Origin: Alistipes sp.
Lineage (GTDB): Bacteria; Bacteroidota; Bacteroidia; Bacteroidales; Rikenellaceae
Length of the DNA: 40,997 nt
Assembly (NCBI GenBank): GCA_045632505.1
Contig: JAZQWU010000218.1
Span: forward strand, 1-40,997
Reading direction: 5' to 3'
Shown here one piece after another: positions 5,063 to 25,981 of this stretch (position 1 is the stretch's first letter; every line of letters begins with the position of its first letter). The notes under the pieces are model-generated. The model made no database searches, was not told the DNA's origin, and saw nothing but the letters and a program-made list of their open reading frames with translations. Position numbers and translations under genes: made by a program.

Positions 5063-5113
5063 TCAAGCCCCGAGGGCTATATAATTGACGAAAAAAAGCG
5101 TGATTTTCAAAAA

Positions 5114-5293
5114 AATTTCGTACCTTTATAGGTCGAAATTGCCGAAAATTACACCAAAATAGGGTAGAGGTCTTTGATCGGACCTCTGCTCACCAAGAGC
5201 CAAAAGGCTCATAAAAGCGGAAAACGGAAAGCGGAAAGCGGAAAACGAGAAAGGGCTCAGTTGAGAGTTGAGAGTTGAGAGATTTTTCTCTAA
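5114..5293 (+). promoter_or_regulatory. Pilin operon promoter and structured leader, copy 2
   Basis: TACCTTTA (5121-5128) lies inside the AATTTCG..CGAAATT inverted repeat. Same two hairpins as copy 1, with different numbers of GCGGAAA and AGTTGAG units. Confidence 0.65.
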
Positions 5294-5405
5294 CGACGCT
5301 AACCGACGACAAACCGAGAGCAGAGGGTGCTTGCACACTATGCCGAGGTGCGAAGGAGGAAAAGCCTGCGTAGCAGGATTAACGACCCTAACGACCCTAA
5401 AAAAG

Positions 5406-5608
5406 AGACTTAGAAAATTTAACAATTAACAAAAACAATAAAAAACTTACAACTATTTTAGTGGAGCGAAGCGACAAGCCGCCCTTTTCCAAAGGGAGGT
5501 TTGGAGGGAATGTAAAGACAATTTCTTCATAGCTCTCGACTCCGTTCCAAGATGGTAAGACTTAGAAAATTTAACAATAAACAAAAACAATAAAAACATT
5601 ACAACTAT
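5406..5608 (+). repeat. 51-bp imperfect direct repeat of the translation-initiation region (5406-5456 and 5558-5608)
   Basis: AGACTTAGAAAATTTAACAAT...TTACAACTAT occurs twice. Only the second copy continues into ATG. Confidence 0.85.
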
Positions 5609-6605: not shown

Positions 6606-6637
6606 TTTATTGACAAACAATTAAAACTTATATAATT

Positions 6638-7612: not shown

Positions 7613-7620
7613 TAAACTTT

Positions 7621-7650
7621 GGCTATAAGGGATTGAAACCCCTTATAGTC
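7621..7650 (+). terminator. Intra-operon hairpin (attenuator or mRNA stabiliser)
   Basis: GGCTATAAGGG-ATTGAAAC-CCCTTATAGTC just after the stop codon; no U-tract. Confidence 0.45.
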
Positions 7651-7776
7651 GCTATTGCGGGCACAAAGCCCCGCGAGCCCACGCAGATGCCGATGCAACA
7701 AACGGCAGACGATTAGAAACCGCAGATGCCGACGATAGGCTGATGCCCAACAACGGGGGCGGACCCCGCAAGATAG

Positions 7777-8766: not shown

Positions 8767-8770
8767 GAGT

Positions 8771-10015: not shown

Positions 10016-12762
10016 TGAAAGGAGTTTGTAGGATGAGAAGGTTTGTAAAATATATAGCAGTTGTTGTGGCGATGTTCGTTGTCAACGCTTGCACCATTGC
10101 CGACATCGACACTCCGGTCAAGGGCGGAGTATCGCAAAGTGCGAACTCGGTTCAGCTTATCAGCCGAGTTGCTCCGTTCACCGACTACGATGTTGCTACT
10201 CGAGCAACAAAGACTCCAGAGGAGACATACGTTTCGCAGTTGGAATATATTATTTTCGACGCAAATAATACCTGCGTATTCTATCAACACGTCGATGGTA
10301 ACGAGTCTGTTGCAATTGACCGAGAGAGTGAGTGGGGTGCTGAATATAAGAACAACGATGCTCTCAAGTCGTGTACTATCTTTGTGATTGCCAACTATCC
10401 CGAGATTTACGAGAAAATATGTGCGAAGGGTTGGGAGAATAACTCTGCGAAGGGTAAGACATACGCGGAGTTGTCGTCACTTGGACTTAAAACAAGCGTT
10501 AATGGCATCTACATTGACCCGACACTCGGTTTGCCGATGTATGGACAGTATGTTGCCAATAATGGTTCGACTACTGTTGATTTCACAGCGGATATCGCAT
10601 CGGGTACAAGTTTTGTAACAACATTGACCTCGCTCTACTCCAAGATTGTGTTCAATATTGGTATCACTGCTGACCAGACAATGCCCAATTATCCTATGTT
10701 TGAGATTGAGGGCTTCGACGTTTATGGTTTGCCTAAAACTGTGGACTTGACATCTGGTACCGAGGGTTCTACAAACGATATGGTCGAAGTGTGGAAAGAT
10801 GAAGATGAGTTAAAAGCATTTGCCGGCGAGTTGGCTGGTAATACAACTACAATTCACGGAGGCGGTAATACCATTCCATTCTCGTTCTATCTTCCTGAGC
10901 GATTCCTCGTACCTAACACAAAGGCTTCTGAATATGCGTATCCGTTCAAGAAAGATTCGTATGAGGGCCAAGTTGTAGATAAAAACGGGAATGGTATTCG
11001 TGACGAGGATGAGAGGTATATGCAGCGCTACAAGCCTTGCTTGGTCGAGGGCCAAGATGCTACCTTTGTTCGCTTCTATGGTACTTATACCGACCATCAG
11101 GGTATGACATACAATGTGTCGTATGATATATTCATTGGTAATGACAATTATAGCAATTTCGACGTTGTGCGAAATCGTCAGTACAACAATTCGGTTACCA
11201 TTCGAGGTCTTGCTACCTCGAGCGATCAGACCACAAGTGAAGAGTCTATCTCTATTGATCATCGTGTTAACGTTGAGAGAACTTTGCCAGGTATAGTTAA
11301 CCTTCGTCGTGAGACATTGTTGGACTCGCACTTCGAGGTGCGCCCATTGCGTATTCGCAAGAATGAAAATCACAAAAGCGTAGGTCAGTCGGCTACTCAC
11401 GCAAGAGTTTCCATTACCGATAATAATTCTTCGCCTATGGTGCGATTGGAGTACAAGGACATTGATGGTGGTAATACAGCTCGTTATCTAAGTAATGGCA
11501 AGCGCAAATATTTCACTTCTGGTCTCGTGTCTGGAAATGAAGATGGTACTTTGAATGGTAGCACTTCGTGTGTGGTAGAACTCTCAGAAGTGAATCAGAC
11601 CATTTGGCTCTATGTGGATGAATGTCTCGAGTATGGTGATGGTATCCGTACAGCGATCGTCACAGTCGAGTATGGTTCAGGCACAGGTGCAAATTTCAAA
11701 CGTGCAGCGGATTGTGATCCCATAGAGTACGAAATTAAGCAACGTAAGCTATTTGAGGTCTTTTACGACGAGAACAATGATAATACTCAGCAGAGTTCCG
11801 AGCGTAAGTATTATATAGAGTACCACGAGGAGTACCTTTACAACTACGACGCTGAGGATAGCTTCAACCAAACTGAGCAAGAGGGTATGGCGTGGGGCTT
11901 GAATGGTTCACAATTGTCATTTGACCATCAGTCTATTGCGTTCAATGATGGATTGCAAAACTGGCTAACATCTGGAGCTCGCCCGTATTATGATTTTTAC
12001 ATCACAAAGCACGATAAAAACGACGCAGAAACATCAAAAGGAACTTTGCACGATCATACTGGTTTTGAATTCTGTGATGAGATTATTACAGACGTAAATA
12101 CTAATACCAGTGAAAGAGATGGTGCAAATAATACAGCAAACGATATAAAGGTATTAAACCTTAACGATAAGCCAAAGTCAGCAGTAGAGTATTGTTATAA
12201 TAAGAATAAGCGAAATAGTAAGGGAGAAGTACAAGATGTTGTATGGTATCTCCCTTCTGTTGACGAGATTGAGGATGTCATAATGAGTTCGTATAAACGA
12301 AGCGATACATCTGATATAGAGGGTGTTTACTTACTATTCAAAGACTTTCAGAATAAGTTCTATTGGTCTTGTCAACCTGCATATATTCGAAACTTTACTT
12401 ACTACCAGGGTATTTCTAATAGCCGAGATAGCTGGGGGCCTGTTTATATTGATAACGTCAACTATGCAAGAGCTACTAAAGTGGACTATAAAGTTGTGAG
12501 GGTTGAGAATGGAGTTTCGGTATATGACTATGTATATGCATATAGCGGAATAGAGCCTGGGGCTTATTATAATGGTACTTGGTTTAAGTGGGGCGGTATT
12601 CTTGGAACAAATACATATACACCAGCAGATGGAACAGTTACTTTTGATAATAGAAGCGATGTTACCATAACATTTAAAGAGGTGTCAGCAACTAAGCAAG
12701 AGGGTTATCTCCATCGTACAAACGATATGGCTCGTATCCGTTGCGTGCGAAAGATGAATTAG
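10015..12762 (+). CDS. Large pilin-like lipoprotein with a C-terminal C-type-lectin-fold-like domain (probable tip adhesin)
   Basis: Lipobox VNAC, ATRA site, FVIANY, LPMYG, SFYLPE, NFDVVRN, DSHFEVRP. C-terminal WYLPSVDEI...YWS...RIRCVRK motif set. TAATG overlap with the upstream gene. Confidence 0.7.
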   Translation: MKGVCRMRRFVKYIAVVVAMFVVNACTIADIDTPVKGGVSQSANSVQLISRVAPFTDYDVATRATKTPEETYVSQLEYIIFDANNTCVFYQHVDGNESVAIDRESEWGAEYKNNDALKSCTIFVIANYPEIYEKICAKGWENNSAKGKTYAELSSLGLKTSVNGIYIDPTLGLPMYGQYVANNGSTTVDFTADIASGTSFVTTLTSLYSKIVFNIGITADQTMPNYPMFEIEGFDVYGLPKTVDLTSGTEGSTNDMVEVWKDEDELKAFAGELAGNTTTIHGGGNTIPFSFYLPERFLVPNTKASEYAYPFKKDSYEGQVVDKNGNGIRDEDERYMQRYKPCLVEGQDATFVRFYGTYTDHQGMTYNVSYDIFIGNDNYSNFDVVRNRQYNNSVTIRGLATSSDQTTSEESISIDHRVNVERTLPGIVNLRRETLLDSHFEVRPLRIRKNENHKSVGQSATHARVSITDNNSSPMVRLEYKDIDGGNTARYLSNGKRKYFTSGLVSGNEDGTLNGSTSCVVELSEVNQTIWLYVDECLEYGDGIRTAIVTVEYGSGTGANFKRAADCDPIEYEIKQRKLFEVFYDENNDNTQQSSERKYYIEYHEEYLYNYDAEDSFNQTEQEGMAWGLNGSQLSFDHQSIAFNDGLQNWLTSGARPYYDFYITKHDKNDAETSKGTLHDHTGFEFCDEIITDVNTNTSERDGANNTANDIKVLNLNDKPKSAVEYCYNKNKRNSKGEVQDVVWYLPSVDEIEDVIMSSYKRSDTSDIEGVYLLFKDFQNKFYWSCQPAYIRNFTYYQGISNSRDSWGPVYIDNVNYARATKVDYKVVRVENGVSVYDYVYAYSGIEPGAYYNGTWFKWGGILGTNTYTPADGTVTFDNRSDVTITFKEVSATKQEGYLHRTNDMARIRCVRKMN

Positions 12763-12833: not shown

Positions 12834-14606
12834 CTACGCGTTGTGGTCGGGGTGCAACTCGTTGAGGATGCTGACCAAGCGCTGGATGGTGCGGCCCTTG
12901 CTTGGTGAGTTTACCTCGCACTGCTTGTTGACAATAGGTGCAATCCAGTTGCGGTATGAACCAGGGATGTGCATAATCTTGCCTTTCACCTGTGCATCCT
13001 TTGGTGCCATAGTGTGACCGCCAGTGTAGAGTGCCAAGGTGCGGTTGGCCTGTGACGGATTGATGTCCGACACATCGCGCACATAGCAGTAGTCCTTGCC
13101 GTCAAGGTTGTAGAAGACCGCCAAGAGGTCGTTGCGGTCTACACACTTGATAGAGACGCTCTGGTCCTCAATCCAAGGGGCGTTGCTCTGCTGGGCAATC
13201 ATTCGCTTGCCGTACCAGTCGTTCTTGCCCTTGGCAAAATCAATCTTGTTCACCTTGCACGCGTTGTCGTACATAAGCAAGAGGACCTGGTCCTCGTTCT
13301 TGTGGTACTGTTTCAACTTGAAGTCGCAGAGCTTGTTCGCACGACAAGTCTTGACCTTGCTGTTTGGCTTGCTCAAGGTGTAGTGACCATCGTCGAAGAG
13401 CTGGAGGTACAACCAGTCATTCATATTGCGCTCCTCGTCAATCGCTGCAAGGTTTGCAATCTTAACCTCGTCAGCAGTTGCATTCTCCTCGGTGTCGACA
13501 TCGAGGACCTCGGTGTCGTAGCCGAGTTTGTTGTCAATGAACTCGCCAAAGGCGTTACCACGCAAGCGCTCAATCACAAACATTGTCAATGTATCGCCCG
13601 AGAGCAATGCAGTCTCGCTGCACTGACGGCGGAACAACTGGGTGTTGTTCACGTAGATAGGTTTGCTCGAACGGCTGATGTCGATGCGACCTACAACCTT
13701 GCCTTCGCGCTCCTCCTTTACAATCTTAATCAAGTTTGGTGCGTATGGACCCAAGTACTCTCTTACAGAGTCGGTCACCTTGCGCGACCAACCGTCCCAG
13801 TTTGCTGGGTAGGTGTAGCCGTTGCCCTCGCTCAACTTGTCGAGGTCGTTGTGGATGCCGTGCACCGAACCATCGTCGTTGACGCCGATGAACAACTGGC
13901 CACCCTCGTGGTTCATAAAGCCTGCGATAGAACGCATAATGTTGTAGACCTGACGGCTAACCTGAGCCTCCTTTGACTGTGGGTGGAATACCAATGACTG
14001 CTTGAACTCAACAGTGCTGGACTCCTCGCCGTAGTTGAACTTAGAGGTGGTCTGGCGTGGTTTAGTCACTACGGGCACCTCCTCCTCGCGAGTAGTGAAG
14101 GCGCAGATGTACTGGTTGATTTGGTTGCCTCGCAATGGTTTGCGGAATTTCAAGTAGCTCAAGCCCTTAGCATTGGTCTCGATAGAGTCCACGAAGAGGG
14201 TAATCTGATCACCCGCGTTGTAGTTGCTCAATGAGTCGTCGTTCAGAATTGGGAAATAGTGAACCACGCCAAAGCTGTCCTTTAGTGAAAGACCATCCTG
14301 GAGCAAGCGTACAACATTAAAGCTGAATTTCTTAGGAAGGTTCTCATCTCCGTAGAGTGAGTCAATGAGCCAGTTCTTGCTGAAGTACAAGGTTGGAAGA
14401 CCGCTAAAGCAATCAATCTCTTTGACAATAACGTCAATAGTGCTCGGAAGTTGAGCGTCTGGTTGTGCCAAGAAATCAAACGCACGAACTCGCATCTGTC
14501 GTCCGTTTACCTCCTCCTTGAAATAGATGAACTTGCGTCCATCCTGTGTCTCGTTAATGCAATCAACTGTCAATGTGTAAGTCTTGCCTGCCTCAATCTG
14601 CTTCAT
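12834..14606 (-). CDS. Schlafen/AlbA_2-domain protein with N-terminal S1/OB-like repeats and an uncharacterised C-terminal domain
   Basis: EESSTVEFKQS...IAGFMNHEGGQLFIGVNDDGSVHGI is the AlbA_2 core. N-terminal GKTYTLTV and GDQITLFV segments are S1-like. Confidence 0.8.
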   Translation of the reverse strand: MKQIEAGKTYTLTVDCINETQDGRKFIYFKEEVNGRQMRVRAFDFLAQPDAQLPSTIDVIVKEIDCFSGLPTLYFSKNWLIDSLYGDENLPKKFSFNVVRLLQDGLSLKDSFGVVHYFPILNDDSLSNYNAGDQITLFVDSIETNAKGLSYLKFRKPLRGNQINQYICAFTTREEEVPVVTKPRQTTSKFNYGEESSTVEFKQSLVFHPQSKEAQVSRQVYNIMRSIAGFMNHEGGQLFIGVNDDGSVHGIHNDLDKLSEGNGYTYPANWDGWSRKVTDSVREYLGPYAPNLIKIVKEEREGKVVGRIDISRSSKPIYVNNTQLFRRQCSETALLSGDTLTMFVIERLRGNAFGEFIDNKLGYDTEVLDVDTEENATADEVKIANLAAIDEERNMNDWLYLQLFDDGHYTLSKPNSKVKTCRANKLCDFKLKQYHKNEDQVLLLMYDNACKVNKIDFAKGKNDWYGKRMIAQQSNAPWIEDQSVSIKCVDRNDLLAVFYNLDGKDYCYVRDVSDINPSQANRTLALYTGGHTMAPKDAQVKGKIMHIPGSYRNWIAPIVNKQCEVNSPSKGRTIQRLVSILNELHPDHNA

Positions 14607-14679
14607 AGTTTTAAATTTTTTAAATGTTTGATAATTAATTAGTTATTGTTTAAAATAGTTTTCTTTCGTATTGCTGATG

Positions 14680-14727
14680 CAAAGATATGTCAAAGATTTT
14701 TCTTAAAACTTTTTGTTATAGGTATAA
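14680..14727 (-). promoter_or_regulatory. Promoter (-7 TATCTTTG) with upstream palindromic box TTATA-N2-TATAA
   Basis: On the + strand, CAAAGATA at 14680-14687 and TTATAGGTATAA at 14716-14727. Confidence 0.6.
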
Positions 14728-14815
14728 AAAAAGACCACCCTATTTTTCGTCGAAATTTTACCGCAGAGGAGGCGAAAATCCCCCTCTACGGGAGGCGGAA
14801 AAACCGACGCGCGAC

Positions 14816-16585
14816 CTAAAATCCAATCGGTTTGCGGGCGGTCGCCTGCTTGTTTATCAGCTCGTGCTTGCAGAATTCGTCAATCTCGTTGAAGCCAATC
14901 TGCTTGCCCGACAGGATATACTCGATGGTGCGCTGTCGTGCGATATTCTCAATCTGTCCGCCCGAGAAGTTGTAGCGCGCTGCAAGTTTGTGCGCCTCCT
15001 CCATTGTTATGCTATTGCCAAGCATACTGCTCCACAACTTCGCTCTAACCTCGTTGTTTGGGTTGTGGAACTCAATCTTGAAGAGGAAACGTCGCTCGAA
15101 TGCCGAGTCGAGGTTGCAAGTGAGGTTTGTGGTGGCAATGAGGATGCCCTCCAAATCCTCCATCTCCTGCAAGATGATATTCTGTATGGCGTTGTCCATT
15201 TTCTCGACCGAAGGGTTGGTACCGCCGATGGCAGTGCGCTTGCCAAAGATGGCATCTGCCTCGTTGAAGAGGAGGATTGGCATCACCTCGCTCTGCTTGC
15301 ATACGCTCTTGTAGCGCGCAAAGACCGCTTTGATGTTCTTTTCGCTCTCGCCTACATATTTATCGCGCATACCCGCGATGTCAATCTGCATAATGTCGCG
15401 GCCCGTTTGGCGAGCAATCTGCAAGACGGTCTCGGTCTTGCCCGTACCCGGAGTGCCGAAGAAGAGACACGCCACACCTTGTCGCATACCCTCGTTGCTC
15501 AGGCGCTCCTGAATGCCCGGCAGACTCTCCTGACTCAGAAGAGAGGTGAGTCGCTCTATCTGCTGTTGCTCCTCCGCGTTGTAGAACATATTCTTAGCTT
15601 TAATGGTTTCGTGGCTCTTTAGGTGACGCTTGCCGTTGTTGCGCGAAGGGCAATTTTTTCTGCTCGGAACGTAGTCTGCCAACAACTCCTCCTTGCACTT
15701 TCGTGTGAGCGAATATCGCTCGGTATCTGCTACGCCATCCTCGCATTTGTGCTCGATATATCCGTCTATTATAAGTCGGTGCTCTCCGTCGATGAGTTGT
15801 CGGTGTCGGATGTTTGAATCGCAATCATTGGGGTACCAGTGGTTGATAGAGGAGAGGCATAGTCCCTCTTTCTCGGATTCTGCCCATTGCGCGTAGTCGT
15901 AAATAACCAACAGCAACAATGATTGTGTGTGGATGTCATCCTTGTACTGCTCCACAACCTGGCATAATGGCAACTGCGGATTTGCCTTGCAAAGTTGCAT
16001 CATCCAACTCTCCACCGCATCGAATGGGGTGTTGTTGCCATCGAGGTTGTTATCGAGGTGCGCCTCCAATTTGCCTACGAAATCTTGTATATCCAAACAA
16101 TCAAGCCTCTCTGGTACGAAGACCGTGTTTCGGCGTAGTGCAGTTACCACGCCGCGAACAAGGGCGAAACCCTCGTAGCAAGAGCCCATCTGCCAAGTGC
16201 CACGACGCACCACCCAGCGTTTCTCCAGCAAACCATCCATCTCCTCGGAGTGAACCATAACAGAGATTCTTGAGCAATTCAAGAATTGACCTATGTCGCG
16301 CCACGACATAGCCTCGCCCGACTCGATGAGGATGGCGATGAAGACCACTTGTATGTCAGAGAGTCCAAGCTCCTTGGTTAGGTATGCGATGGGGCTCTTG
16401 ACTGCTTTCCAAAACTTTGCGCAAAGTCGTGAGTCCTCGGCTTTGCTGAGAACTCTGTCGAGAGCAGAGATGATGGTCCATTCGGCTGGCTCCTGGTAGT
16501 TGTCTTCCTCCTCGTGTATAGACATAGTATCGTCAATGTTGAAGTGGAGGTCTGTGTCAGTGTGGCGGTTTCTGAAGTTTTTCAT
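14816..16585 (-). CDS. AAA+ family ATPase with a long N-terminal region
   Basis: Walker A GTPGTGKT, Walker B variant ILLFNEAD, sensor-1 IATTN, SRH LDSAFERRF, terminal KPIGF. ATG 16585 preferred over TTG 16591. Confidence 0.85.
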   Translation of the reverse strand: MKNFRNRHTDTDLHFNIDDTMSIHEEEDNYQEPAEWTIISALDRVLSKAEDSRLCAKFWKAVKSPIAYLTKELGLSDIQVVFIAILIESGEAMSWRDIGQFLNCSRISVMVHSEEMDGLLEKRWVVRRGTWQMGSCYEGFALVRGVVTALRRNTVFVPERLDCLDIQDFVGKLEAHLDNNLDGNNTPFDAVESWMMQLCKANPQLPLCQVVEQYKDDIHTQSLLLLVIYDYAQWAESEKEGLCLSSINHWYPNDCDSNIRHRQLIDGEHRLIIDGYIEHKCEDGVADTERYSLTRKCKEELLADYVPSRKNCPSRNNGKRHLKSHETIKAKNMFYNAEEQQQIERLTSLLSQESLPGIQERLSNEGMRQGVACLFFGTPGTGKTETVLQIARQTGRDIMQIDIAGMRDKYVGESEKNIKAVFARYKSVCKQSEVMPILLFNEADAIFGKRTAIGGTNPSVEKMDNAIQNIILQEMEDLEGILIATTNLTCNLDSAFERRFLFKIEFHNPNNEVRAKLWSSMLGNSITMEEAHKLAARYNFSGGQIENIARQRTIEYILSGKQIGFNEIDEFCKHELINKQATARKPIGF

Positions 16586-16633
16586 AGTCAAGAATTTTTT
16601 GGTTCGCTAATGTTTACTCAATGATTTCGACTG

Positions 16634-16681
16634 CAAATTTAAAGTGCATATTTTTCATAAAACGGTTTATTATAGGTATAA
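16634..16681 (-). promoter_or_regulatory. Promoter (-7 TAAATTTG) with upstream palindromic box TTATA-N2-TATAA
   Basis: On the + strand, CAAATTTA at 16634-16641 and TTATAGGTATAA at 16670-16681. Spacing matches 14680-14727. Confidence 0.6.
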
Positions 16682-16870
16682 AAAAAGAGGTGTAAAAAGT
16701 CTAATAAAAAGTGCGCGCATTCTCGCGCGTTGCGTGGGTAGAGAGGGTGGAAAAAGTTGAAATTTTTTTGGGGTGGCAATTGTTTTAGAATGAGAGAGTT
16801 GGTGGGTTGGATGGGTAGAGAGGATAGAAAATTTTTGGCAAAAGACTTGACAAACCCTATTTTCGAGTTA

Positions 16871-16901
16871 TATATTTGCACCGTCAATCGACGTCAATCG
16901 A
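16871..16901 (+). promoter_or_regulatory. Host-type promoter of the phage-like operon with a tandem 10-bp direct repeat at the start site
   Basis: TATATTTG at 16871-16878 matches the Bacteroidota -7 consensus. CGTCAATCGA occurs twice at 16882-16901. Confidence 0.6.
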
Positions 16902-17038
16902 CACCTGGTTTTCAACACACACTTCTCTGTTGTTAAAAACCTTTTCAACATCACAACAAGCTGACTGCTCGGGACATTTCTGATGTTTTCGACAGCCACG
17001 AACAACCTTTTAACAAACTTACTAACATTTTACAACCT

Positions 17039-17443
17039 ATGAATCGCACCCTTTTATGCCGTGCGATAGAGGGGTTGGTGTCGAGGTGCGGCTACCATTT
17101 TCAGGTGAATGACGAGGCGTACTATCCAACCACCGTCTGTCGCTATCCTGCCGCCTTTATGTCTCAACCGAAATTCGTGAGGATTGAGGGGCGCAATCAC
17201 GGCCGAATAACCTACAACATCACCTTACGTTTTGCTTGCCAGGGGGCTAAACTCGCTCCGCAAGAGCGCCGCTCGGCACTCGAAGAGATGGAGCAGCAGA
17301 TTATCGAAATCTTCGTCGAACTCTCGCGTGATAAGCAGATTGCCGTAGTCGACAACTTGACCATTGCCCCAAGTGCCGAGGCGATTGATACTCACGGCGC
17401 ACTTGCAATGGTGGCGCAGGCCGATGTAACAACAATTTTCTAA
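17039..17443 (+). CDS. Phage-like hypothetical protein, possibly tail completion/terminator
   Basis: 134 aa. The YPAAF motif, then beta-strand (YNITLRF), helix and terminal strand pattern recall tail terminators. Context supports this. Confidence 0.4.
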   Translation: MNRTLLCRAIEGLVSRCGYHFQVNDEAYYPTTVCRYPAAFMSQPKFVRIEGRNHGRITYNITLRFACQGAKLAPQERRSALEEMEQQIIEIFVELSRDKQIAVVDNLTIAPSAEAIDTHGALAMVAQADVTTIF

Positions 17444-17461
17444 CCCTAAAACTTTCCAGAA

Positions 17462-18424
17462 ATGAATCTTGAAAAAATTTCGAGCAACTTCACACCTCGC
17501 GAGCAGGGTATCTTCTTCGCCATCGACACCGAGCGAGATGAGCAAACGGACCTTGTGGTGGAGATTATAAACCGCGAGACGGAGGAGGTGGTTGCCACGC
17601 AGATGCTCCGCAATGTCACGACTGCGAAGGTGAATATTGCACCATATGTCGACGCTCCAGCCTACTATGAATCAGGCAATAGCAACGAGTTGTCGTTTAC
17701 GGAGTTGCCTACTTTTCGCTACGCAATCCGAGTGGAGGAGACCGAGTCGGAGGCGATTCTCCTCTCGGTAAATCGCACCGAAATAGAGTTGCCCTCAATC
17801 GTCACGTCGCAACCCCTCTCGCGCCACATCTCGCTTGGCGAATACGATGAGGTCTTGATTGTGGCAGAGCCATACAGCGACCTCTGTGCCGAGATTACCA
17901 CCAACCTCGGGGAGTCGGTTTCGGTGGAGCAGTATTGCAAGTCGGGCGCTGCCTTGCTCACAATCCCTACCGGGGAGTTAGACCTTGCGACGCGCACTTT
18001 CGACCTTCGCATTGAGTGTGGCGGTGAGGAAATTTGTGAAATCCACTACGCTGTAGCACCTCGCCACAAAGGTGCAGTTCGTATGGCGTGGCTCTCCGAC
18101 GAGGGTACGATAGAGCGATACACTTTCCCAATTTCGAGCCGTTCGTTCCGCTCGGTTAGCAAGCGCACCACCTCGATGCTCATTGGCGAAATCACCTCTC
18201 AATGCAATGCCAAGCAGAGCATCACGGTCTGCTCGCGCTACGAACCTATCGCCACAATCAATGCTTTGGCGCAGATAGTCCACTCACCGAAGGTGTGGGT
18301 TGAGGAGCGTGGCAGACGACGAAGTGTCGAAATCCTATCGTCGGAGATTGAGTACAATCTCTTTGGCGCACCAGCCAGCATTGCGCTTGATGTCTGCTTG
18401 TGGCAGAAGGGGGTTGCGGTATGA
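17462..18424 (+). CDS. Phage structural protein, possibly distal-tail-like
   Basis: C-terminal WLSDEGTIERYTF...LAQIVHSPKVWV pattern resembles Bacteroidota siphovirus tail-region proteins. ATGA-coupled to the next gene. Confidence 0.45.
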   Translation: MNLEKISSNFTPREQGIFFAIDTERDEQTDLVVEIINRETEEVVATQMLRNVTTAKVNIAPYVDAPAYYESGNSNELSFTELPTFRYAIRVEETESEAILLSVNRTEIELPSIVTSQPLSRHISLGEYDEVLIVAEPYSDLCAEITTNLGESVSVEQYCKSGAALLTIPTGELDLATRTFDLRIECGGEEICEIHYAVAPRHKGAVRMAWLSDEGTIERYTFPISSRSFRSVSKRTTSMLIGEITSQCNAKQSITVCSRYEPIATINALAQIVHSPKVWVEERGRRRSVEILSSEIEYNLFGAPASIALDVCLWQKGVAV

Positions 18425-20793
18425 TAGCGCTCTATATTGATGAGAAACAGTGCGACATCGGTGCATTGCCAACCATCCCCATCGGTTTCGATGTGGCAAA
18501 TCTCACCAAGGTTGAGGGTGCTCGCCAGGGTAGGAGCATAGAGTTGACCTTGCCAGCAACACTGCAGAACAACGCCCTCTTTGGTGCGGCGAATGACCTC
18601 TACGCCACTCGGAGATTCAATCTCGACCACCACTCGGCACGCATCGAGAAGGATGGTGTGGTGATTTTCAGCGGTACGGCACACCTGAAGGGCGCAATCA
18701 CGAAAGATGGCGCGTGCGACCACTACGCAGTACGAATCGAAGAGGGTGGAGCAGAGTGGGTTGAGGGTGTTGCACGCGGAGCATTGTCCGATTTGGCGAT
18801 TCCCTTTTCGGGCCATCTCAACCTTGCGACTATCACCTCGTCGTGGGAGGGCGAGCAGTCGGTGCGTTTTCTACCCATCTACCGAGGGGAGTACAACCTC
18901 CGCTATGGCTCGTCGGATATGCCTACCGAACGCATTATGCTGACCGACGACTACCACCCATTTATCTCGGTTGCCGATATGGTGAGGGCGATGTTGGCGG
19001 AGTCGGGCTACACACTGCGCAGTCGCTTCTTTGATAGCGAATTGGGGCGTTCGCTCTATGTGAGTGGCGACTTTTCGCGCACCGCCAACGATGTTGCCAA
19101 GGCGAAGTGCGACTTCCTTGCCCGTCGTGCGACAAAGGGCGAGGCTACCGCCGACCATATCGGCAGAGTCTACGCTACGAATGCCTTCGCGGCCCACTCG
19201 GTGGGTGCGATTGTGGATACCGCCAATCCGAATGTGGTGGATAGCGAGGGCGAGCTGATGAGCGATACCTTCTGTATGAATGGCTCATTCTCGATGACCG
19301 AAACGGGCGAGATGTCCTTCTCGCCAAAGATATCGGTACGCGCAGGATTTATTCTCCACCTTGAGTACACCTCGGAGTGTAGGATTCTCTCGCGTGAGCG
19401 ATTGCAGGGGTTTGATACAGTCGAGGGGTTGTATGGCGAGCGTGTGGAGGCGACATTGGCAAATACCCACAAGGACTACCGCCAGGCACCAAATGCCAAT
19501 TGGGAGTATCGTTGCTTTGTCTTCGACCACACCGAGGGTAGCAAGTACAAGATGTTGGCAATTTTCGAGGATGGTACTTCGTCGTTGCTGAAGGAGTGGT
19601 CCTCGCGCTCGGTGGAGGTGACGACGCCATCGAAGAAGATCTCTTCGCTGAAACTTTTCCGCTATGACGAGGCGAATGCGCAGTGGTTAGCCTATTTGAA
19701 AGATTGGGCGCTCTACAATGGTTATGTCGACGAGGTGAACGAGGTGGATGTGGTGATGGATTTCCGTATTGCGCCGCAACAAGTGGCGGCAGGCGAGCGC
19801 CTTGTACTCGATAAATTCTGGTTCGGAGGCGCAGCGGAGGGGATGAAGTTGACCCTCGGCAAGGCCACTTCGCTCCGCCCATACTTCACCTCGGTGCCGG
19901 GTTACAACGCGCCAATCGAGTTTAAGGATATTGCCCCTCGCCATATCTCACAGGCGGAGTTGCTCACCGCCGTTGGAGAGATGTTCAACCTCGTCTTCTA
20001 CTCCGACCAGGTGCGCAAGGAGTTGATTATTGAGCCTTTAGAGGAGTTTTATGAAGGTGCGCCCGTCGTGGATTGGACGAGTCGCATTGACCACCTCGGC
20101 GAGATGGTCGTGACGGATGTAGGAGTGGATACGCCCCAAGACTTTATCCTTGCCTATCTCGATACCGATAGTGCGACGCAACGCTTCAATACGGCGAACG
20201 ACACTACGCTCGGCGAGTGGAGTTTTCGCAACCCTCTCTACGGCACAAAACTCTCGACTCAGCGAGTTGGCAATACGCTCTTTACGACTACACTCAACAC
20301 CGATGGCATCATTGGCTCAGCACCCTCGGCCTCGGTAATGCAAGTGGGCGATGCCGGAGCGGAGTTGGAGGAGGTGGATGCTCCAATCTCGCCACGCATA
20401 GTCTGCTACAAGGGGTTACGCTCACTCCCTGAGGGCGAGAGTTGGGGTACGCACAGACGAGAGACCGCCTATCCCTACGCCGCTTTCCTCGATGAGGAGA
20501 CAAACCTCTGCTACGAGGAGCGCAACGGAATGGAGGGTTTGAGTCGCCACTTTCTGCCGATGTTGTTGCGTCGTCGCGATAGTCAGCAAGTTGCACTTGA
20601 CCTCCGCCTCACTACGGCAGAGATTGCCACTCTCCTTACGGCAGATGGTGCGAAGCCATCACTGCGAAGCCGATTCCGCTTCGAGATTAATGGCGAGAGT
20701 TCGTTATTTCGCCTGGCGAAGATGGAACGATGGGACTGCGATAGCAATGTTGTGCGATGCCTTTTTGAACGTGAACTTAACGATGAACAATGA
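18421..20793 (+). CDS. Phage tail-tip/baseplate-hub-like structural protein
   Basis: N-terminal LYID...D...SIELTLPAT..NNALFG and later LL....EMFNLVF...LIIEP..EFY....VDWT patterns are typical of Bacteroidota phage tail proteins. ATG 18421 overlaps the upstream stop. Confidence 0.55.
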   Translation: MIALYIDEKQCDIGALPTIPIGFDVANLTKVEGARQGRSIELTLPATLQNNALFGAANDLYATRRFNLDHHSARIEKDGVVIFSGTAHLKGAITKDGACDHYAVRIEEGGAEWVEGVARGALSDLAIPFSGHLNLATITSSWEGEQSVRFLPIYRGEYNLRYGSSDMPTERIMLTDDYHPFISVADMVRAMLAESGYTLRSRFFDSELGRSLYVSGDFSRTANDVAKAKCDFLARRATKGEATADHIGRVYATNAFAAHSVGAIVDTANPNVVDSEGELMSDTFCMNGSFSMTETGEMSFSPKISVRAGFILHLEYTSECRILSRERLQGFDTVEGLYGERVEATLANTHKDYRQAPNANWEYRCFVFDHTEGSKYKMLAIFEDGTSSLLKEWSSRSVEVTTPSKKISSLKLFRYDEANAQWLAYLKDWALYNGYVDEVNEVDVVMDFRIAPQQVAAGERLVLDKFWFGGAAEGMKLTLGKATSLRPYFTSVPGYNAPIEFKDIAPRHISQAELLTAVGEMFNLVFYSDQVRKELIIEPLEEFYEGAPVVDWTSRIDHLGEMVVTDVGVDTPQDFILAYLDTDSATQRFNTANDTTLGEWSFRNPLYGTKLSTQRVGNTLFTTTLNTDGIIGSAPSASVMQVGDAGAELEEVDAPISPRIVCYKGLRSLPEGESWGTHRRETAYPYAAFLDEETNLCYEERNGMEGLSRHFLPMLLRRRDSQQVALDLRLTTAEIATLLTADGAKPSLRSRFRFEINGESSLFRLAKMERWDCDSNVVRCLFERELNDEQ

Positions 20794-21038
20794 TGAACAA
20801 GAGAAAACTGCTAACCACACTCCTGAGAAGGGTGGAACAACGAAGCATCAACGAATCTGTAAACCTAATGTGGGAGCAAGGGTTGCTTGACAAGCGAGCC
20901 GTCGAGCGACTCTACATCAACTCCGAAGTAGAACGCCGAGTGCGTGCTGGCGAGGTCAAGACTCGGGCGATGCAACAACTATCCGACGAGTTGGGTTGCT
21001 CCTACGAAAAGGTCAGAGCAGTAGTCTATAACAAGTAA
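20790..21038 (+). CDS. Small basic protein with a C-terminal helix-turn-helix
   Basis: 82 aa. AMQQLSDELGCSYEKVRAVVY fits an HTH pattern. ATGA overlap. Confidence 0.55.
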   Translation: MMNKRKLLTTLLRRVEQRSINESVNLMWEQGLLDKRAVERLYINSEVERRVRAGEVKTRAMQQLSDELGCSYEKVRAVVYNK

Positions 21039-21043
21039 TAAAT

Positions 21044-21919
21044 ATGGAGACACAAATCAAAATCACAAACGAAGCCTCCGTTTGCACCATCGATATCGAG
21101 GGTGTAATCGGAGTACCCGAAGAGGAGCAGTTTGGCGACACAATACACAGTGTAGCCACCTACGAACGACTGCGCGAGGAGGTCGAGCGTATCAAGGAGA
21201 TTGATGCCGAGGAGATTGTCGTAAACATCCGTTCGACTGGTGGAGACGTGAACGATGCTCTGCTCATCTATGAGTCGCTCACCGCCCTAAATGCCAAAAT
21301 CACAACCCGTTGCTACGGATACACCGCCTCGGCTGCAACGATTATCGCCCAAGCTGCAAGCGAGGGCTGTCGCGAGATTGCCTCCTCGGCACTCTATCTC
21401 GTACACCTCTCGAGCAGTGCAATCGAGGGTAACGCCTCTGACCTGGAGGAGCGCATTGAACTGCTCAAAAAGACCGATGACCGCATCGCCTCGCTCTACG
21501 CCTCGCGTTCGGGAGCAAGCAAGGAGCAGATGCTTGCCCTGATGGGGCAGAATGGCGGACGAGGTCGCTGGCTCTCGCCCGAGGAGGTGGTTGGTGCAGG
21601 ACTTGCCGATGCCGTAATCGGAGCGGAGCCAACCGCCAAACCCGCAGGGTTGCTCGATAGGGTGAGGGCTTGGTTCTCGCCTACGGAGAGCGAGGTGGAG
21701 CAGTGCGATAAATCGGCATCGGTCTGCGATGTAAACATCTTGCACCTGCCCGAAAACCTCCACTCTTCGGTCTCGACGATATCGTTCGAGGAGGGGCAGA
21801 ACGCGGCAAAGCGAACCATCACAGCCGCCAAGGAGGACCCTCAGCTCGAGGGTATGGCGGTGTCGCAGAATGCGTTGGCATATGCCAATGATATGAACAA
21901 CTTGAAGTTGCATCTTTAA
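21044..21919 (+). CDS. Clp (S14-like) prohead maturation protease with a short C-terminal extension
   Basis: IRSTGGDV, YTASAATII (catalytic Ser), YLVH (His), WLSPEEVVGAGLAD. Immediately upstream of the capsid gene. Confidence 0.85.
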   Translation: METQIKITNEASVCTIDIEGVIGVPEEEQFGDTIHSVATYERLREEVERIKEIDAEEIVVNIRSTGGDVNDALLIYESLTALNAKITTRCYGYTASAATIIAQAASEGCREIASSALYLVHLSSSAIEGNASDLEERIELLKKTDDRIASLYASRSGASKEQMLALMGQNGGRGRWLSPEEVVGAGLADAVIGAEPTAKPAGLLDRVRAWFSPTESEVEQCDKSASVCDVNILHLPENLHSSVSTISFEEGQNAAKRTITAAKEDPQLEGMAVSQNALAYANDMNNLKLHL

Positions 21920-21961
21920 AAACAAACCAAACAAACCAAAACACTTAAAAACCTTAAAATT

Positions 21962-22939
21962 ATGATTATCGAAAATTCAAAAACCTACAATGTAAACGAT
22001 GTTGAAAACCTCTTTTTCCGCCCTTCGTTCTGTGGCAAATCGGCGGAGGATCTTGGCATTCGCGTAATCTACAATATGCCGATTCCGACCAAGATTCCGG
22101 TATTCTTCCACAATAACAATATCCTCACCTCATTCTCTACGGGCTGGCAGGGTGGTTCGGCAGGTTCGTTCACCGACACCGAGGTGACTATGACCAAGGT
22201 GAAGGCGGAGTCGTCGTATGCTGCCGACCTCTACTTCTCGACCATCTACGAGATGCTCACCAACTCGGCCGAGGTTAATCTTGGCGACTTGAGTGGTACC
22301 GACCTCGAGACTGCCGAGACCGAACTCTTCCGTCGCGCTATCGTAGATAGCATCTACTCTACAATGTGGTGGGGCGACACAAATGGCGAGTACTCTAACT
22401 TCACAAGTTTCACTGGCTTCCTTCCGAAGATTGAACTCGCGTGGGATAATGGCGACACTACCAGCGTCGATGTTGAGAACGAGCAGGTGACCGCAGATGT
22501 GGAGTCTATCTTTATGAATACTTGGCGCAACGCATCGTCTCAGCTCCGCAACCTTGCGTCGGATGGTCAGTTGGCATTCTATGTTTCGTCGGACATCTAC
22601 GACAAGTATCGCACAATGATTGACCAGAACAACTACAACGTGTTGAATGCGGGTATCTTGGAGGCGCGTCCAGTGCTCTACTATCACGGCATTCCGATTA
22701 TCGAGGTTCCGATGGATAGTTTCTACACAACCAAGGGCAAATCGTTCTGCCTCTTGACCGACCGTCGCAACCTTATCTTGGGACTCAATACCAACGACTC
22801 GCCCGAGAAGGGTATCAAGATGTGGTACAATCCCGATGAGATGGAGAATCGTCAGCGCGTAGTATTCCTCGCAGGAACGGCGATTGCCGACTACTCGCTC
22901 ATCTCGGGCTTCATCTATAACGAAACTGTTTCGCTCTAA
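21962..22939 (+). CDS. Probable major capsid protein (HK97-fold)
   Basis: 325 aa, follows the prohead protease. Long helix ending MWWGDT, then FTGFL, YHGIPIIEVP, LLTDRRNLILG and WY motifs. A-rich translation initiation region. Confidence 0.7.
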   Translation: MIIENSKTYNVNDVENLFFRPSFCGKSAEDLGIRVIYNMPIPTKIPVFFHNNNILTSFSTGWQGGSAGSFTDTEVTMTKVKAESSYAADLYFSTIYEMLTNSAEVNLGDLSGTDLETAETELFRRAIVDSIYSTMWWGDTNGEYSNFTSFTGFLPKIELAWDNGDTTSVDVENEQVTADVESIFMNTWRNASSQLRNLASDGQLAFYVSSDIYDKYRTMIDQNNYNVLNAGILEARPVLYYHGIPIIEVPMDSFYTTKGKSFCLLTDRRNLILGLNTNDSPEKGIKMWYNPDEMENRQRVVFLAGTAIADYSLISGFIYNETVSL

Positions 22940-23421
22940 TGGCGATGACGGCAATCTATAAGCCGGTTGGTGGGGTAGAGAGTGCAACTCTCTATCCTGC
23001 CGATGCGGTGGAGATGGCTCTATTCTCGGGTGATGGCTGCGAGGTAGAACTCTCGGGCGAAGGGCTCTGCGTACCTTTGCTCGACGATGGCTCGCACTAT
23101 GAGGAGCGTGCCGAGTGCAAGGGTGGCATACACAAGGTGGCGCACGCGCTCCATCTGGTAGCCGACAGAGCCAGTGGCGACGAGTGGTTCGATGCCGACT
23201 TCTTGGAGCGCGCCTCGGTGGATGGTGTTGTTGCCGTCATTACGCTCTACGATGGCAGACGATTGTTGCTCGGCTACTCTGCCCACTTCGGTGGTGAGCA
23301 ACCCCTCCGCCTCGAATCGCTCGAATCGAGTTCGGGCGAATCGCTGCACGACATCCCCACTGCAACGTTGCGACTCGTGTCGTACGATACGGAATTCTCC
23401 CCCGAGATACTAAACCTCTAA
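22939..23421 (+). CDS. Phage structural protein, possibly tail-tube-like
   Basis: 160 aa, TAATG-coupled to the capsid gene. N-terminal VGGV and later VAVITLYDGRRLLLG beta-rich pattern. Confidence 0.45.
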   Translation: MAMTAIYKPVGGVESATLYPADAVEMALFSGDGCEVELSGEGLCVPLLDDGSHYEERAECKGGIHKVAHALHLVADRASGDEWFDADFLERASVDGVVAVITLYDGRRLLLGYSAHFGGEQPLRLESLESSSGESLHDIPTATLRLVSYDTEFSPEILNL

Positions 23422-23437
23422 TTTTCAACAGAATAAT

Positions 23438-24664
23438 ATGGAAAATGCAAAGATAAAAAGCGTGGTCTGTGCCTCTGCCCAGAATAGCGCCGATACGCTC
23501 TATTCACTCTCGGCAAACAAGGTCGAAAGCAAAGATTTCTGGCGTTGGGGTACGGACAACAATATGCCCGAGGCGTTAGCCCTATTGTCGAGGCGTTCGA
23601 CCGCCCATCGTCGCATTATTAACGACAAGGCCGACTACATCTCGGGCAAGGGATTTAATTATGACACGACGATTCCGTTGTTGGGCAATATCGTGAATCG
23701 TGCAAATGGCGAGGGCGAGTCGCTGCGTCAGGTGCTGAACAAACTTGCCTTCGACAAGTCTCTTTTTGGAAATGCCTTTCTCGAGGTGGTGACCGACGAG
23801 AAGCACACCTTCCTCTCGCTCTACCATCAGGATGCCACTCGTTGTCGCGTGGCGAAGGATTCGCAGCACATACTTCTCCACCACGATTGGAGTCACTTCC
23901 GCGCTTCGGAGGCGTTGTCGTTGCCTCTCTACCCTCAGTTCGAGAAGCAGAGCGACGGCACGCTTCGTTCGATTGTCCACTACAAGGATTACGAGCCGAT
24001 GTTCGAGCATTATGGCGTACCGCAATATATCGCGGGAATGAATGTCTCGGCAATCGCCTACAAGACCGACCGCTGGAATATTGCTCGTTTGGACAACTCG
24101 TTCCAGCTTTCGGGTGTGATGATGATTGATAATGCGGTGGATAGCGAGAGCGAAGCATCCGAGTTGGCGCGCCTTGCCGAGCAACGCTTCGCTGGCAAAC
24201 CTGGGCAGGTGATGTTCATCATCCGCGACGAGAGTTCCGACGATAACTCGCGCTTCATACCCATCGAGTCGCAGAACGATGGCGATTGGAAGGATCTGCA
24301 CGACCAGGCGACCAGCGACATCGTGGTGGCGCATTCGTGGTTTCGCTCGTTGAGTGGTTTGGACTACTCGACAGGCTTCAGTGCCGAGCGCATCTTGCAC
24401 GAATATGAGGTGGCACTGAACACCGTAATCCTCGGCGAGCAGAGCGAACTTATGGAGCCTATTCTGCACGCAATATCGCACATCTTGCTGATTGACTGCT
24501 CCTCGCTCGAGGTGATAAATCGCCCTCCAACACGCTCCAAGCCTATCTATATGAAGGTTTGGGAAGCTCGCAAGGCGGATGGTTTGGAGTACGACGAGGC
24601 GGACGAGCGTCAGCAGTTGTACCTCTCGGAAATCAGCAAGTACAACCTCAAATCGATTGATTAA
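23438..24664 (+). CDS. Phage portal protein
   Basis: WGTDNNMP...STAHRRIINDKADYISGKG, LFGNAFLEV, YGVPQY and IVVAH motifs of Bacteroidota-type portals; 408 aa. Confidence 0.8.
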   Translation: MENAKIKSVVCASAQNSADTLYSLSANKVESKDFWRWGTDNNMPEALALLSRRSTAHRRIINDKADYISGKGFNYDTTIPLLGNIVNRANGEGESLRQVLNKLAFDKSLFGNAFLEVVTDEKHTFLSLYHQDATRCRVAKDSQHILLHHDWSHFRASEALSLPLYPQFEKQSDGTLRSIVHYKDYEPMFEHYGVPQYIAGMNVSAIAYKTDRWNIARLDNSFQLSGVMMIDNAVDSESEASELARLAEQRFAGKPGQVMFIIRDESSDDNSRFIPIESQNDGDWKDLHDQATSDIVVAHSWFRSLSGLDYSTGFSAERILHEYEVALNTVILGEQSELMEPILHAISHILLIDCSSLEVINRPPTRSKPIYMKVWEARKADGLEYDEADERQQLYLSEISKYNLKSID

Positions 24665-24669
24665 AAACT

Positions 24670-25143
24670 ATGAAAAACCTTATTACGAATGAACAAGTTA
24701 TATCTTTGGCTTTCGCAGATGGCGAGTACCTTTCGCCAGAGGTGGTGCTCGATTCGGACATCGCTGCAGCCACTTCTCGCTATATTATCCCGATTGTGGG
24801 AGCAGAGCTATACGAAGCGTTGCTTAACGGCTCTCATCCGTCTCTGCTTGACGACTTTGTCGCGCCTGCTCTCGCAATGGCAGTCCGAACAATGATTCAG
24901 CCCGCGCTGAATGTCCGCACCGGTCAGACGGGGTTGCATATCTCCTCATCTCTGCGTAGCGACTCCTCGACAAAGACCGCCGTACACACCTTGCACAAGT
25001 CGCTGCGACTGCGACGTCGCGAGTTGTTGCGCCGCCTATCCAACCACCTAAGAGACCACCAATCGGAGTTTGCGGGCTATGACGCAAGCCGAGATATTAT
25101 GCAACGTTGCGCTATCAATGGAGGCTACCTACAGAGTTATTAA
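24670..25143 (+). CDS. Probable head-tail connector/adaptor
   Basis: 157 aa helical protein directly after the portal, with a YIIPIVGAELYEAL motif. Confidence 0.5.
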   Translation: MKNLITNEQVISLAFADGEYLSPEVVLDSDIAAATSRYIIPIVGAELYEALLNGSHPSLLDDFVAPALAMAVRTMIQPALNVRTGQTGLHISSSLRSDSSTKTAVHTLHKSLRLRRRELLRRLSNHLRDHQSEFAGYDASRDIMQRCAINGGYLQSY

Positions 25144-25552
25144 CGCTGCCATCTTGGGGCTTGCGGCTCTTTTTGCACCCATCAGACCGCTGATACTCTG
25201 CGCATTAACATTCATCGCGATAGACTTCGTGACGGGAGTCATAGCCTCCCGTTGCGAGGCAAGGCAGAGGGGTGAGCGGTGGTTTTTCACCTCGCACGAG
25301 GCGTGGCGCACCATTCGCAAAGCGGGGTTTGTAATGGTGACCATCGGTATGGGCTGGCTTATCGAGAGTTGCATCCTCGACTTCGTGACTCTCAACCTTA
25401 CGCGCATTATTACGGGGGCGATATGCGGCGTGGAGATGTGGTCGTTCCTGGAGAATGCCTCGGTGCTGAGCGATGCGCGACTCTTTGCGTGGTTGCGCAA
25501 CTATGTTAAACGAAAAGTAGAGAAGGAGATAGGAGAATATGACAAAGATTAG
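25118..25552 (+). CDS. Phage holin family protein
   Basis: Start at ATG 25118. Transmembrane segments, IDFVTGV, E.WSFLEN motif and a basic/charged tail. Confidence 0.8.
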   Translation: MEATYRVINAAILGLAALFAPIRPLILCALTFIAIDFVTGVIASRCEARQRGERWFFTSHEAWRTIRKAGFVMVTIGMGWLIESCILDFVTLNLTRIITGAICGVEMWSFLENASVLSDARLFAWLRNYVKRKVEKEIGEYDKD

Positions 25553-25955
25553 TAGAGGACTACGAAATAACAACCCTGGCAACATTCGCCTCGGCTCGTT
25601 CAAGTACAAGGGCGAGAAGGCGAAGAGTAGCGACTCGTCATTCCGCCAGTTCGAGAGCGTGGAGTGGGGCTACCGAGCGATGTTTGTGCTGTTGCACACC
25701 TACGCCACGAAGCACAACTGTCGCACCCTGCGCGAGATGATTAACCGCTACGCACCGCCTACGGAGAACTTTACCGATGGTTATATCCGTTGCGTAGCAA
25801 ATGCCACCCACCTCTCGGCTGACGAGCCAATCTCGACAACCGACGGAGCAACGATGACCGCCATCGTAGCGGCAATGTCGGCAGTCGAAAACGGAGTAGC
25901 TGCCGATATGAGTGCCGTTTGGCAAGGTTGGAAACTTTTTGTTGCAGATTTTTAA
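25539..25955 (+). CDS. Lysozyme-like phage lysin (structural protein P5-like)
   Basis: RGLRNNNPGNIR...GYRAM...RYAPPTENFTDGYI...MSAVENG. Overlaps the holin gene. Confidence 0.7.
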   Translation: MTKISRGLRNNNPGNIRLGSFKYKGEKAKSSDSSFRQFESVEWGYRAMFVLLHTYATKHNCRTLREMINRYAPPTENFTDGYIRCVANATHLSADEPISTTDGATMTAIVAAMSAVENGVAADMSAVWQGWKLFVADF

Positions 25956-25963
25956 CGATTTTC

Positions 25964-25979
25964 CTACCTTTGTAGGTAG
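25964..25979 (+). promoter_or_regulatory. -7 box TACCTTTG for comEC, embedded in the palindrome CTACCT-TTGT-AGGTAG
   Basis: TACCTTTG at 25965-25972, just upstream of ATG 25982. Confidence 0.55.
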
Positions 25980-25981
25980 TT

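Follow-up and report, generated by a model that had tools for sequence, protein, structure and literature searches.

The window analysed here, a stretch of 40,997 nucleotides from an Alistipes sp. genome of the family Rikenellaceae (G000; assembly GCA_045632505.1, contig JAZQWU010000218.1), carries at 17039..25955 a phage-derived operon for head, tail-tip and lysis proteins, which a preliminary description had proposed as a possible gene transfer agent (GTA). A reading of the open reading frames (ORFs) of the whole window bore out the 11 co-oriented, uninterrupted ORFs in ~8.9 kb of that description, and its coupled junctions held: ATGA overlaps at 18421 and 20790, a TAATG junction at 22939, and longer overlaps of 26 nt at 25118 and 14 nt at 25539, with gaps of 5-42 nt elsewhere. 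The GC content is 0.54 in the operon, 0.52 in the right flank and 0.49 in the genome, and the named relatives of the operon are Alistipes, Tidjanibacter and Rikenellaceae records. The operon itself contains neither a terminase gene nor a tape measure gene, absences that had not been stressed before.

Most of the virion functions previously read from these ORFs stood (Table 1): profiles matched the protease, portal, holin and lysin, predicted folds agreed for the tube and tail-tip proteins, and the capsid call proved weaker and partly positional. The Pfam GP7 match of the capsid protein lies below the cut-off, and the protein is 40% identical to the same-position protein of prophage L171. The predicted tube (g7; predicted local distance difference test score 93.5) was recognized via Z scores of 8.9 to phage 80alpha, 8.4 to the SPP1 tube and 8.2 to the RcGTA particle (6tba), and the predicted hub fold (g3) gave Z 13.4 to 9rku and 11.6 to Mu gp44; its residues ~225-490 form a C1q/TNF-like insert. 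Predicted structures thus underlie the tube and hub assignments, and position plus homology those of g1, g2, g9 and the capsid. A g1 homologue sits behind the large terminase (TerL) gene in phage L248, and among 83 loci g1 and the tube gene occur together in 45, neither occurs in 37 and the tube alone in 1; a g2 homologue precedes the hub gene in free phages, and an Atlas neighbour of g2 is automatically named 'Phage tail protein' (0.96, a weak recognition). No family match in the library scans and no Protein Data Bank (PDB) match were obtained for g1, no solved relative of the capsid emerged from a PDB sequence search, and such searches with the tube, g9, g1 and capsid returned nothing useful. 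The short g4, a possible regulator, is in frame with the protease in some lineages, and its homologue lies between the tape measure and protease genes in prophage-type loci.

The earlier suggestion that virion components might be encoded elsewhere was confirmed by a terminase search of the same genome, which gave one match, on contig C93; a second terminase family found no match in that genome. There, a 465-aa TerL (phrog_38, E 1.6e-85) lies behind a 101-aa ORF (orf101), and a 224-aa CI-type repressor (cI; phrog_4, E 3e-34) is encoded divergently from orf101-terL; the ORF beyond terL is presumably rimP. TerL was found in 35 of 36 same-genus genomes and in none of 24 from other families, and the cI, orf101, terL module is present at 34 of the 35 main TerL loci, the 35th being a 2.4-kb contig. 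The ATPase and nuclease motifs of TerL and the cleavage triad of the repressor (Ala-Gly, Ser, Lys), which we take to be catalytic, are intact in 35/35. In two complete genomes the sites lie 1.16 Mb (G004) and 1.27 Mb (G011) apart; they are 4 kb apart in G255 and about 17 kb apart in G202. A phage small-terminase (TerS) profile matched 37 phage or prophage loci and none of the host TerL modules, and phrog_51 was absent from four of five genomes, being present solely in the prophage of G022. For orf101, an Atlas search gave unnamed clusters only, and its four matches in the viral collection (L239 and L241 among them) are the same host module.

Table 1. Features of the operon, its upstream region and the second site
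Feature	Position	Strand	Basis
Predicted operon promoter, TTGACA + TAnnTTTG	16847..16882	+	best plus-strand promoter-like site
Leader with TTWTYRACA 9-mers (3 sense, 1 antisense)	16909..16994	+	motif density
g1, 134 aa, likely tail terminator/completion protein	17039..17443	+	position in free phages, co-loss with tube
g2, 320 aa, likely distal-tail (Dit-like) protein	17462..18424	+	position and homology
g3, 790 aa, predicted tail-tip hub (gp27/Mu gp44/T5 pb3-like)	18421..20793	+	predicted structure
g4, 82 aa, helical, C-terminal helix-turn-helix-like segment	20790..21038	+	helix-turn-helix read by eye
ClpP-type prohead protease/scaffold	21044..21919	+	Pfam E 3e-26; phrog_94 E 2.5e-36
Likely major capsid protein	21962..22939	+	phrog_1623 E 3e-7, plus position
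g7, predicted tail tube protein, dispensable	22939..23421	+	predicted structure
PBSX-like portal	23438..24664	+	TIGR01540 E 2e-19 (below cut-off); phrog_11226 E 8e-21
g9, DUF6712 protein, likely head-tail adaptor	24670..25143	+	PF20459 E 3.5e-11; role suggested by post-portal position
Holin	25118..25552	+	PF05105 E 4e-10; hydrophobic segments
Endolysin (lysozyme-like)	25539..25955	+	phrog_873 E 4e-43; PDB 7q47 endolysin E 7e-14
Second site: CI-type repressor, operator/promoter spacer, orf101, TerL	G000 contig C93 6481-9005 (L150:257-2781)	repressor -, TerL +	

Within a family set of 246 genomes of at least 90% completeness, the portal gene was found in 234 (149/153 within the genus; 18 of the 23 genera), twice in only 4 genomes and otherwise once, so the patchy presence that would have spoken against host maintenance was not seen. 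Outside the family it occurred in 1 of 297 genomes, and the capsid gene in 35 of 36 same-genus genomes and in 0 of 24 from other families. The family occurs widely in animal guts, judging from the records of relatives, and the module is carried by the cultured type strains A. putredinis DSM 17216 and A. timonensis DSM 25383; a sequencing-run search with the L160 operon listed 24 runs, none of them RNA, and gives no evidence on expression either way.

All operon genes are under purifying selection. Pairwise Nei-Gojobori medians of the ratio of nonsynonymous to synonymous divergence (dN/dS) among 23-26 close relatives range from 0.08 for the portal, the most conserved gene, to 0.36 for g2, as compared with 0.06-0.18 for four host neighbour genes at similar dS; a tube-less clade gave 0.12-0.44, and the genes of the second site gave 0.12 (cI), 0.18 (terL) and 0.48 (orf101). 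Because pairs were kept only at dS 0.05-1.5 (38-318 of 253-325), these ratios are biased upward. Among ORFs closed at both ends, in rows that include some duplicates, short frames numbered 0/110 for the capsid, 0/110 for the portal, 0/98 for the hub and 1/105 for the protease, whose ASAAT motif is kept in 106/106 rows. The tree comparison started from a search of 31 genomes for rpoB, which gave 26 matches; dropping four partial sequences left 22, and the rpoB of G000 is itself partial. The operon tree shared 12 of 19 splits with rpoB (Mantel r 0.91), and TerL plus cI shared 15 of 19 with rpoB (r 0.87) and 12 of 19 with the unlinked operon (r 0.90), neither of these two comparisons showing a strong conflict. 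The near-universal, single-copy presence, the purifying selection, the intact catalytic motifs and the broad congruence with rpoB uphold the view that the host maintains this module, which we regard as practically certain.

The same data bear on a decaying prophage or a self-spreading, capsid-forming satellite of the kind represented by the phage-inducible chromosomal islands that form capsids (cf-PICIs), to which the retained phage gene order and the flanks that differ among lineages would be congenial. Decay was found to be rare, with dN/dS well below 1, and no full prophage was seen at this site in relatives. As previously noted, the flanks hold no integrase, repressor or replication gene, and no tRNA was found there either; of the 20 largest repeat families listed, none flanks the operon on both sides, and no att repeat was seen. 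With no mobility genes, a single copy, distant split sites, dS equal to that of host genes and dN/dS far below 1, this explanation is largely refuted and highly improbable, and the usual marks of a prophage (integrase and att sites, replication genes, TerS, tape measure, patchiness) are absent.

Free relatives with the same gene order are a prophage in G022 (contig C31) and the IMG/VR phages L146/L248 and L124/L263, which run TerS, TerL, g1, a gp10-like gene, g2, hub, tape measure, protease, capsid, tube, portal and g9; after g9 come further genes, among which PHROG identifies tail fibres in L146 and L124, and these relatives also encode an integrase. The host copy is 53-68% identical to them in the portal, 55-60% in TerL and ~40% in the capsid, whereas integrase, TerS, gp10-like and tape measure genes (the last encoding 893-1482 aa), together with the genes after g9, belong to the free relatives only; the G022 prophage additionally carries recombination genes and a diversity-generating retroelement. 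In a portal-plus-capsid tree of 25 host-type and 7 phage loci, where L120 and L133 were classed as host-type from gene content, the host copies form one group with 70% support.

Several related loci deserve mention in their own right. L222 and L171 (G022:C31) belong to the temperate prophage, whose retroelement comprises Avd and a reverse transcriptase, and the same genome also holds a tamed copy. In L345-L346 (G277:C19:339000-351000), a copy of phage type, the tape measure gene is interrupted and a 78-aa gene occurs that was otherwise seen solely in free phages; this copy is possibly a decaying prophage or an intermediate stage. L120, L133 and L313 (the last from genus g26) retain a 257-aa gene that lies between TerL and g1 in free phages. 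Several IMG/VR contigs (L101-L104, L108, L134, L137 and L140-L144) have a host-type layout and are therefore likely chromosomal pieces, L102 and L134 running into comEC; this serves as a warning that some 'viral' database contigs are probably parts of this chromosomal operon. In an annotated phage collection, the fecal 'Bacteriophage sp.' records MT838805.1 and MT838736.1 contain partial, unannotated portal matches.

The circulation of close temperate relatives (portal 63-68%, TerL 55-60% identical) would also suit a defence of the host against its own phage family, in which the repressor would confer superinfection immunity, the head and terminase would cut incoming phage DNA or divert it into dead-end heads that have no tail, and lysis would be abortive. 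Head and terminase are indeed kept and tail genes dispensable, and capsid redirection by satellites is in print, as far as the accessible parts of that literature go. However, defence genes usually turn over fast and occur patchily, unlike this module with its strong purifying selection and congruence with rpoB, and same-family prophages reside in module-carrying genomes (G022, G277); we consider a defence function an unlikely, if conceivable, explanation.

Relative to the free phages, the host copy has lost the integrase, replication genes, the phage-type small terminase, the tape measure and the fibres. The gap between the hub and protease genes is 6-614 bp in 97/97 distinct host loci versus 3.0-4.8 kb in three phages, leaving no room for a tape measure gene, and a tape-measure profile found nothing in G004, G011 and G024, with the G022 prophage as positive control. 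Tape-measure matches were obtained in 36 of the 246 family genomes; the three inspected (G022, G277, G158) lie in phage-type gene blocks. No phage-only genes were found in G000, which is 75% complete. The tube was found in 139 of the 246 genomes, its profile matching 140 genomes, and the tube and g1 profiles both matched G000; in five near-complete genomes of lineages lacking them, a relocated tube or g1 was not found, in a search that had no positive control.

Reduction has gone furthest in genera g41 and g44, where four loci consist of a single compact block of ~8 kb encoding TerL, protease, capsid, portal and g9. A small helical ORF comes before this block, as does the repressor in g41. No hub gene was found in G233, G247 and G246, both control genomes having matched. 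Since TerL, protease, capsid, portal and g9 are kept even in these head-only genera, packaging is the conserved core, and the constant parts are motor, portal, head and adaptor. These four loci are L308-L311 (G233, G247, G241, G246), and their 88-156 aa helical ORF, which overlaps terL, stands at the small-terminase position; it gave no alignment with phage TerS (probability 0.1%), and a search of the other TerL loci did not find it. The lysis genes vary as well, a holin being present at 84 of 98 loci and a lysin at 93 of 98; with the query used, G202 gave no lysin. That the tail is largely dispensable had been missed in the preliminary description, and it changes how such a particle could work.

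This pattern also bears on a tailocin-like killing particle. A tailocin is a complete tail with a tape measure and with neither head nor terminase. The tube and hub folds do resemble those of monocin and other tails, and the repressor is of a damage-inducible type, but the pattern here is the reverse, as the tape measure is absent, the tube is missing from 107 of the 246 genomes and head and terminase are kept; such a particle is hardly credible. A further explanation is that heads, whether DNA-filled or empty, and lysis have a purpose other than gene exchange (extracellular DNA in protected form, a matrix for biofilms, decoys or a programmed lysis of cells with damage), like PBSX minus its killing tail. 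The head-only genera, which have no injection machine, would accord with this, and the available part of PMC12946183 voices this doubt about FpGTA too, pointing out that injection is not performed by PBSX. Nevertheless, the tip genes are kept in most genera under purifying selection (dN/dS 0.24-0.44) and the lysis genes are the more dispensable part, and we hold a purely non-genetic end to be distinctly improbable.

Upstream of the operon, the predicted promoter combines TTGACA with TAnnTTTG, which we take to be the Bacteroidota -7 consensus, and the same arrangement recurs before the first gene in many related loci. The leader that follows is the densest cluster of TTWTYRACA in G000 (4 in 300 bp; 201 motifs in 1.83 Mb), and at least two copies occurred in only 1 of 515 promoter-like windows. 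These repeats, mostly on the sense strand, travel with the element across genera, and g4 is a candidate for their binding partner; in L310, 15 copies lie in 500 bp between the protease and capsid genes. We rejected the repeats as DnaA boxes or a chromosomal origin for want of support: no GC-skew switch was seen across 82 loci, no genome-wide enrichment in G011 (91 matches versus 102 in the control) and, in G004 and G011, no two sites paired within 35 nt. A full-text literature search with TTWTYRACA gave only unrelated papers among the matches listed.

At the second site, a palindrome, RTTCAA-N3-TTGAAY, abuts the -7 element before orf101 in 34 of 35 spacers, where a second, weaker copy is frequent, and the repressor gene itself contains another operator-like palindrome (C93:6997). 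Upstream of the operon, an operator score of at least 12 was reached at 10 of 41 loci from about five lineages, as compared with 3 of 515 background windows, and at none of 10 loci from other genera (best 11.4). The repressor as master of an SOS regulon was not supported, as nine further operator-like sites in three genomes revealed no SOS regulon and no further phage genes. The non-canonical LexA proteins of Bacteroidetes are likewise phage-repressor-like S24 proteins with a palindrome at their own promoter (PMC8565304), binding in the present case being predicted; in the available part of that paper, which does not treat the Rikenellaceae repressor, their motif is different and both groups are absent from Bacteroidales.

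The left flank is not conserved, the AAA+ gene being absent from all related loci displayed. As this gene is bracketed by a 39-nt direct repeat (14696-14734 and 16650-16688, 90%) and does not stand beside the operon in relatives, it is probably a recent insertion, possibly of defence genes; positions 12834-16591 encode a Schlafen/AlbA_2 protein and the AAA+ ATPase, which is weakly IteA-like, far below the cut-off. Further left, 663-12762 holds Mfa-like/FimA fimbrillin genes and a pectate-lyase-like adhesin at a GC content of 0.45 versus 0.49 for the genome, and appears to be a fimbrial island. On the right, the synteny with comEC that had been proposed for checking was borne out in part: comEC adjoins the operon in 55 of 96 loci, and flanks vary between lineages. 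A TAnnTTTG element lies inside a short hairpin directly before comEC (25956-25981).

RcGTA has both a tape measure and a tube, and cf-PICIs are mobile islands with integrase and replication genes. As compared with RcGTA, CcGTA, BaGTA and VSH-1, the Rikenellaceae element would be a separate domestication in Bacteroidota with no tape measure gene and an optional tube, as far as its genes alone tell. It resembles those agents, as described in the accessible text of PMC9662315, in being Caudoviricete-derived, endogenised, multi-locus and vertically inherited, with no replication or integration genes. Judged by the GTA definition given there, its proteins are caudoviricete-derived, it is fully endogenised over several loci (1.2-1.3 Mb apart in G004 and G011, with no mobility genes), and it is vertically inherited and has diversified with its hosts; incomplete self-packaging would follow from the layout where the sites are far apart, but two genera have one ~8 kb block. 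This domesticated module, with its enzyme motifs intact, its genes at two sites and its phage genes shed, is a candidate GTA, apparently built like one and not yet to be filed as one.

FpGTA, described in PMC12946183, offers a close comparison by description: in the accessible part of that paper it belongs to a gut commensal, is genus-wide, is encoded in two operons with terminase, portal, scaffold and capsid, and has a small terminase with no obvious DNA-binding domain, a trait that PMC11841831, also available in part, reports for GTA small terminases. Its particles of ~40 nm, on which no tail is visible, hold ~9 kb of packaged host DNA, and their delivery has yet to be shown; it differs in its Gram-positive host, its probably podovirus-like nature and a fibre/receptor-binding-protein operon (PMC12946183). 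The Rikenellaceae element, in contrast, has a tape-measure-bearing temperate ancestry, encodes a CI-type repressor of its own beside the terminase, and yielded no fibre gene. In the available parts, neither PMC12946183 nor 10.64898/2026.07.08.737213 mentions Alistipes, and PMC12946183 lists Rikenellaceae among the most abundant families of its human gut samples and saw only lateral transduction in Bacteroidota. No GTA gene cluster in Bacteroidota is described in the accessible GTA literature that we examined, and a literature search, with subscription papers and supplements outside it, found no published description of the element.

We therefore lean, by a small measure, towards reading the operon as one half of a vertically inherited, selection-maintained phage module that packs host DNA in the manner of a GTA. 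That it builds heads filled with host DNA we consider probable, and whether it also delivers that DNA we hold to be evenly balanced. DNA damage would trigger RecA-dependent self-cleavage of the repressor and free the orf101-terL promoter, which the operator overlaps; the protease/scaffold, capsid and portal would assemble a prohead, and TerL, having no small subunit that recognises DNA, would cut host DNA non-specifically and pump it in; the head would be closed by g9 and released by the holin and endolysin. The resulting particles would be stub-tailed or tail-less with small heads. Delivery, the weakest step, might proceed via a short tip made of g2 and the hub with its binding-type insert, or with tails borrowed from related temperate phages. 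According to a report, accessible in part, tail-less cf-PICI capsids turn infective with phage tails, and cf-PICIs have their own heads and terminase and no tails (10.1101/2025.02.11.637232); the head-only genera fit this description, and elsewhere tip and sometimes tube genes are present. Unlike cf-PICIs, which are mobile and package their own DNA according to that report, the Rikenellaceae element is fixed in the chromosome and has neither integrase nor replication genes. It is a speculative thought, and a rather unlikely one, that the module is a host-owned 'capsid-forming GTA', in which damage leads to tail-less heads with random host DNA onto which tails of the host's own temperate phages dock.

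Several points weigh against the GTA-like reading. The system is known here from its genes, so that particles, packaged DNA and transfer are predictions, and with no tape measure and often no tube, ordinary injection is hard to picture. The operator score is only 5.7 in this window, and as the operator is strong at few operon loci, control of both sites by one repressor is only partly supported. In 40 of 61 loci a separate promoter-like element precedes comEC, so that its link to the operon is probably not operonic. In five genomes searched, a lysin was located elsewhere in 2 and not found in 3. Two conflicts between the operon and rpoB trees are strongly supported, and the host/phage split has just the 70% support given above, so a single domestication is likely, not proven. 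Decay also occurs: TerL is split in G026 and the portal in G227, the protease match covers only 100-140 aa in L120, L133 and L313, and stops interrupt 2 of 150 listed portal matches. Finally, three genomes of the genus that are 99% complete (G116, G120, G156) have a TerL 72-79% identical and no portal or capsid match, reflecting either loss of the head operon or assembly gaps.

The family holds a natural series from free phages through tube-bearing and tube-less to head-only copies, which shows the parts that hosts keep on taming a phage (packaging motor, portal, head and repressor) and lets comparison test what GTAs are for. If tails are indeed docked from resident phages, this would be a first GTA for Bacteroidota and also the first of any GTA to outsource its tail; the phage tails available would then switch on and aim gene flow in a dominant gut family. 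More generally, a near-universal DNA-packaging module would offer Rikenellaceae a route for gene exchange or DNA repair.

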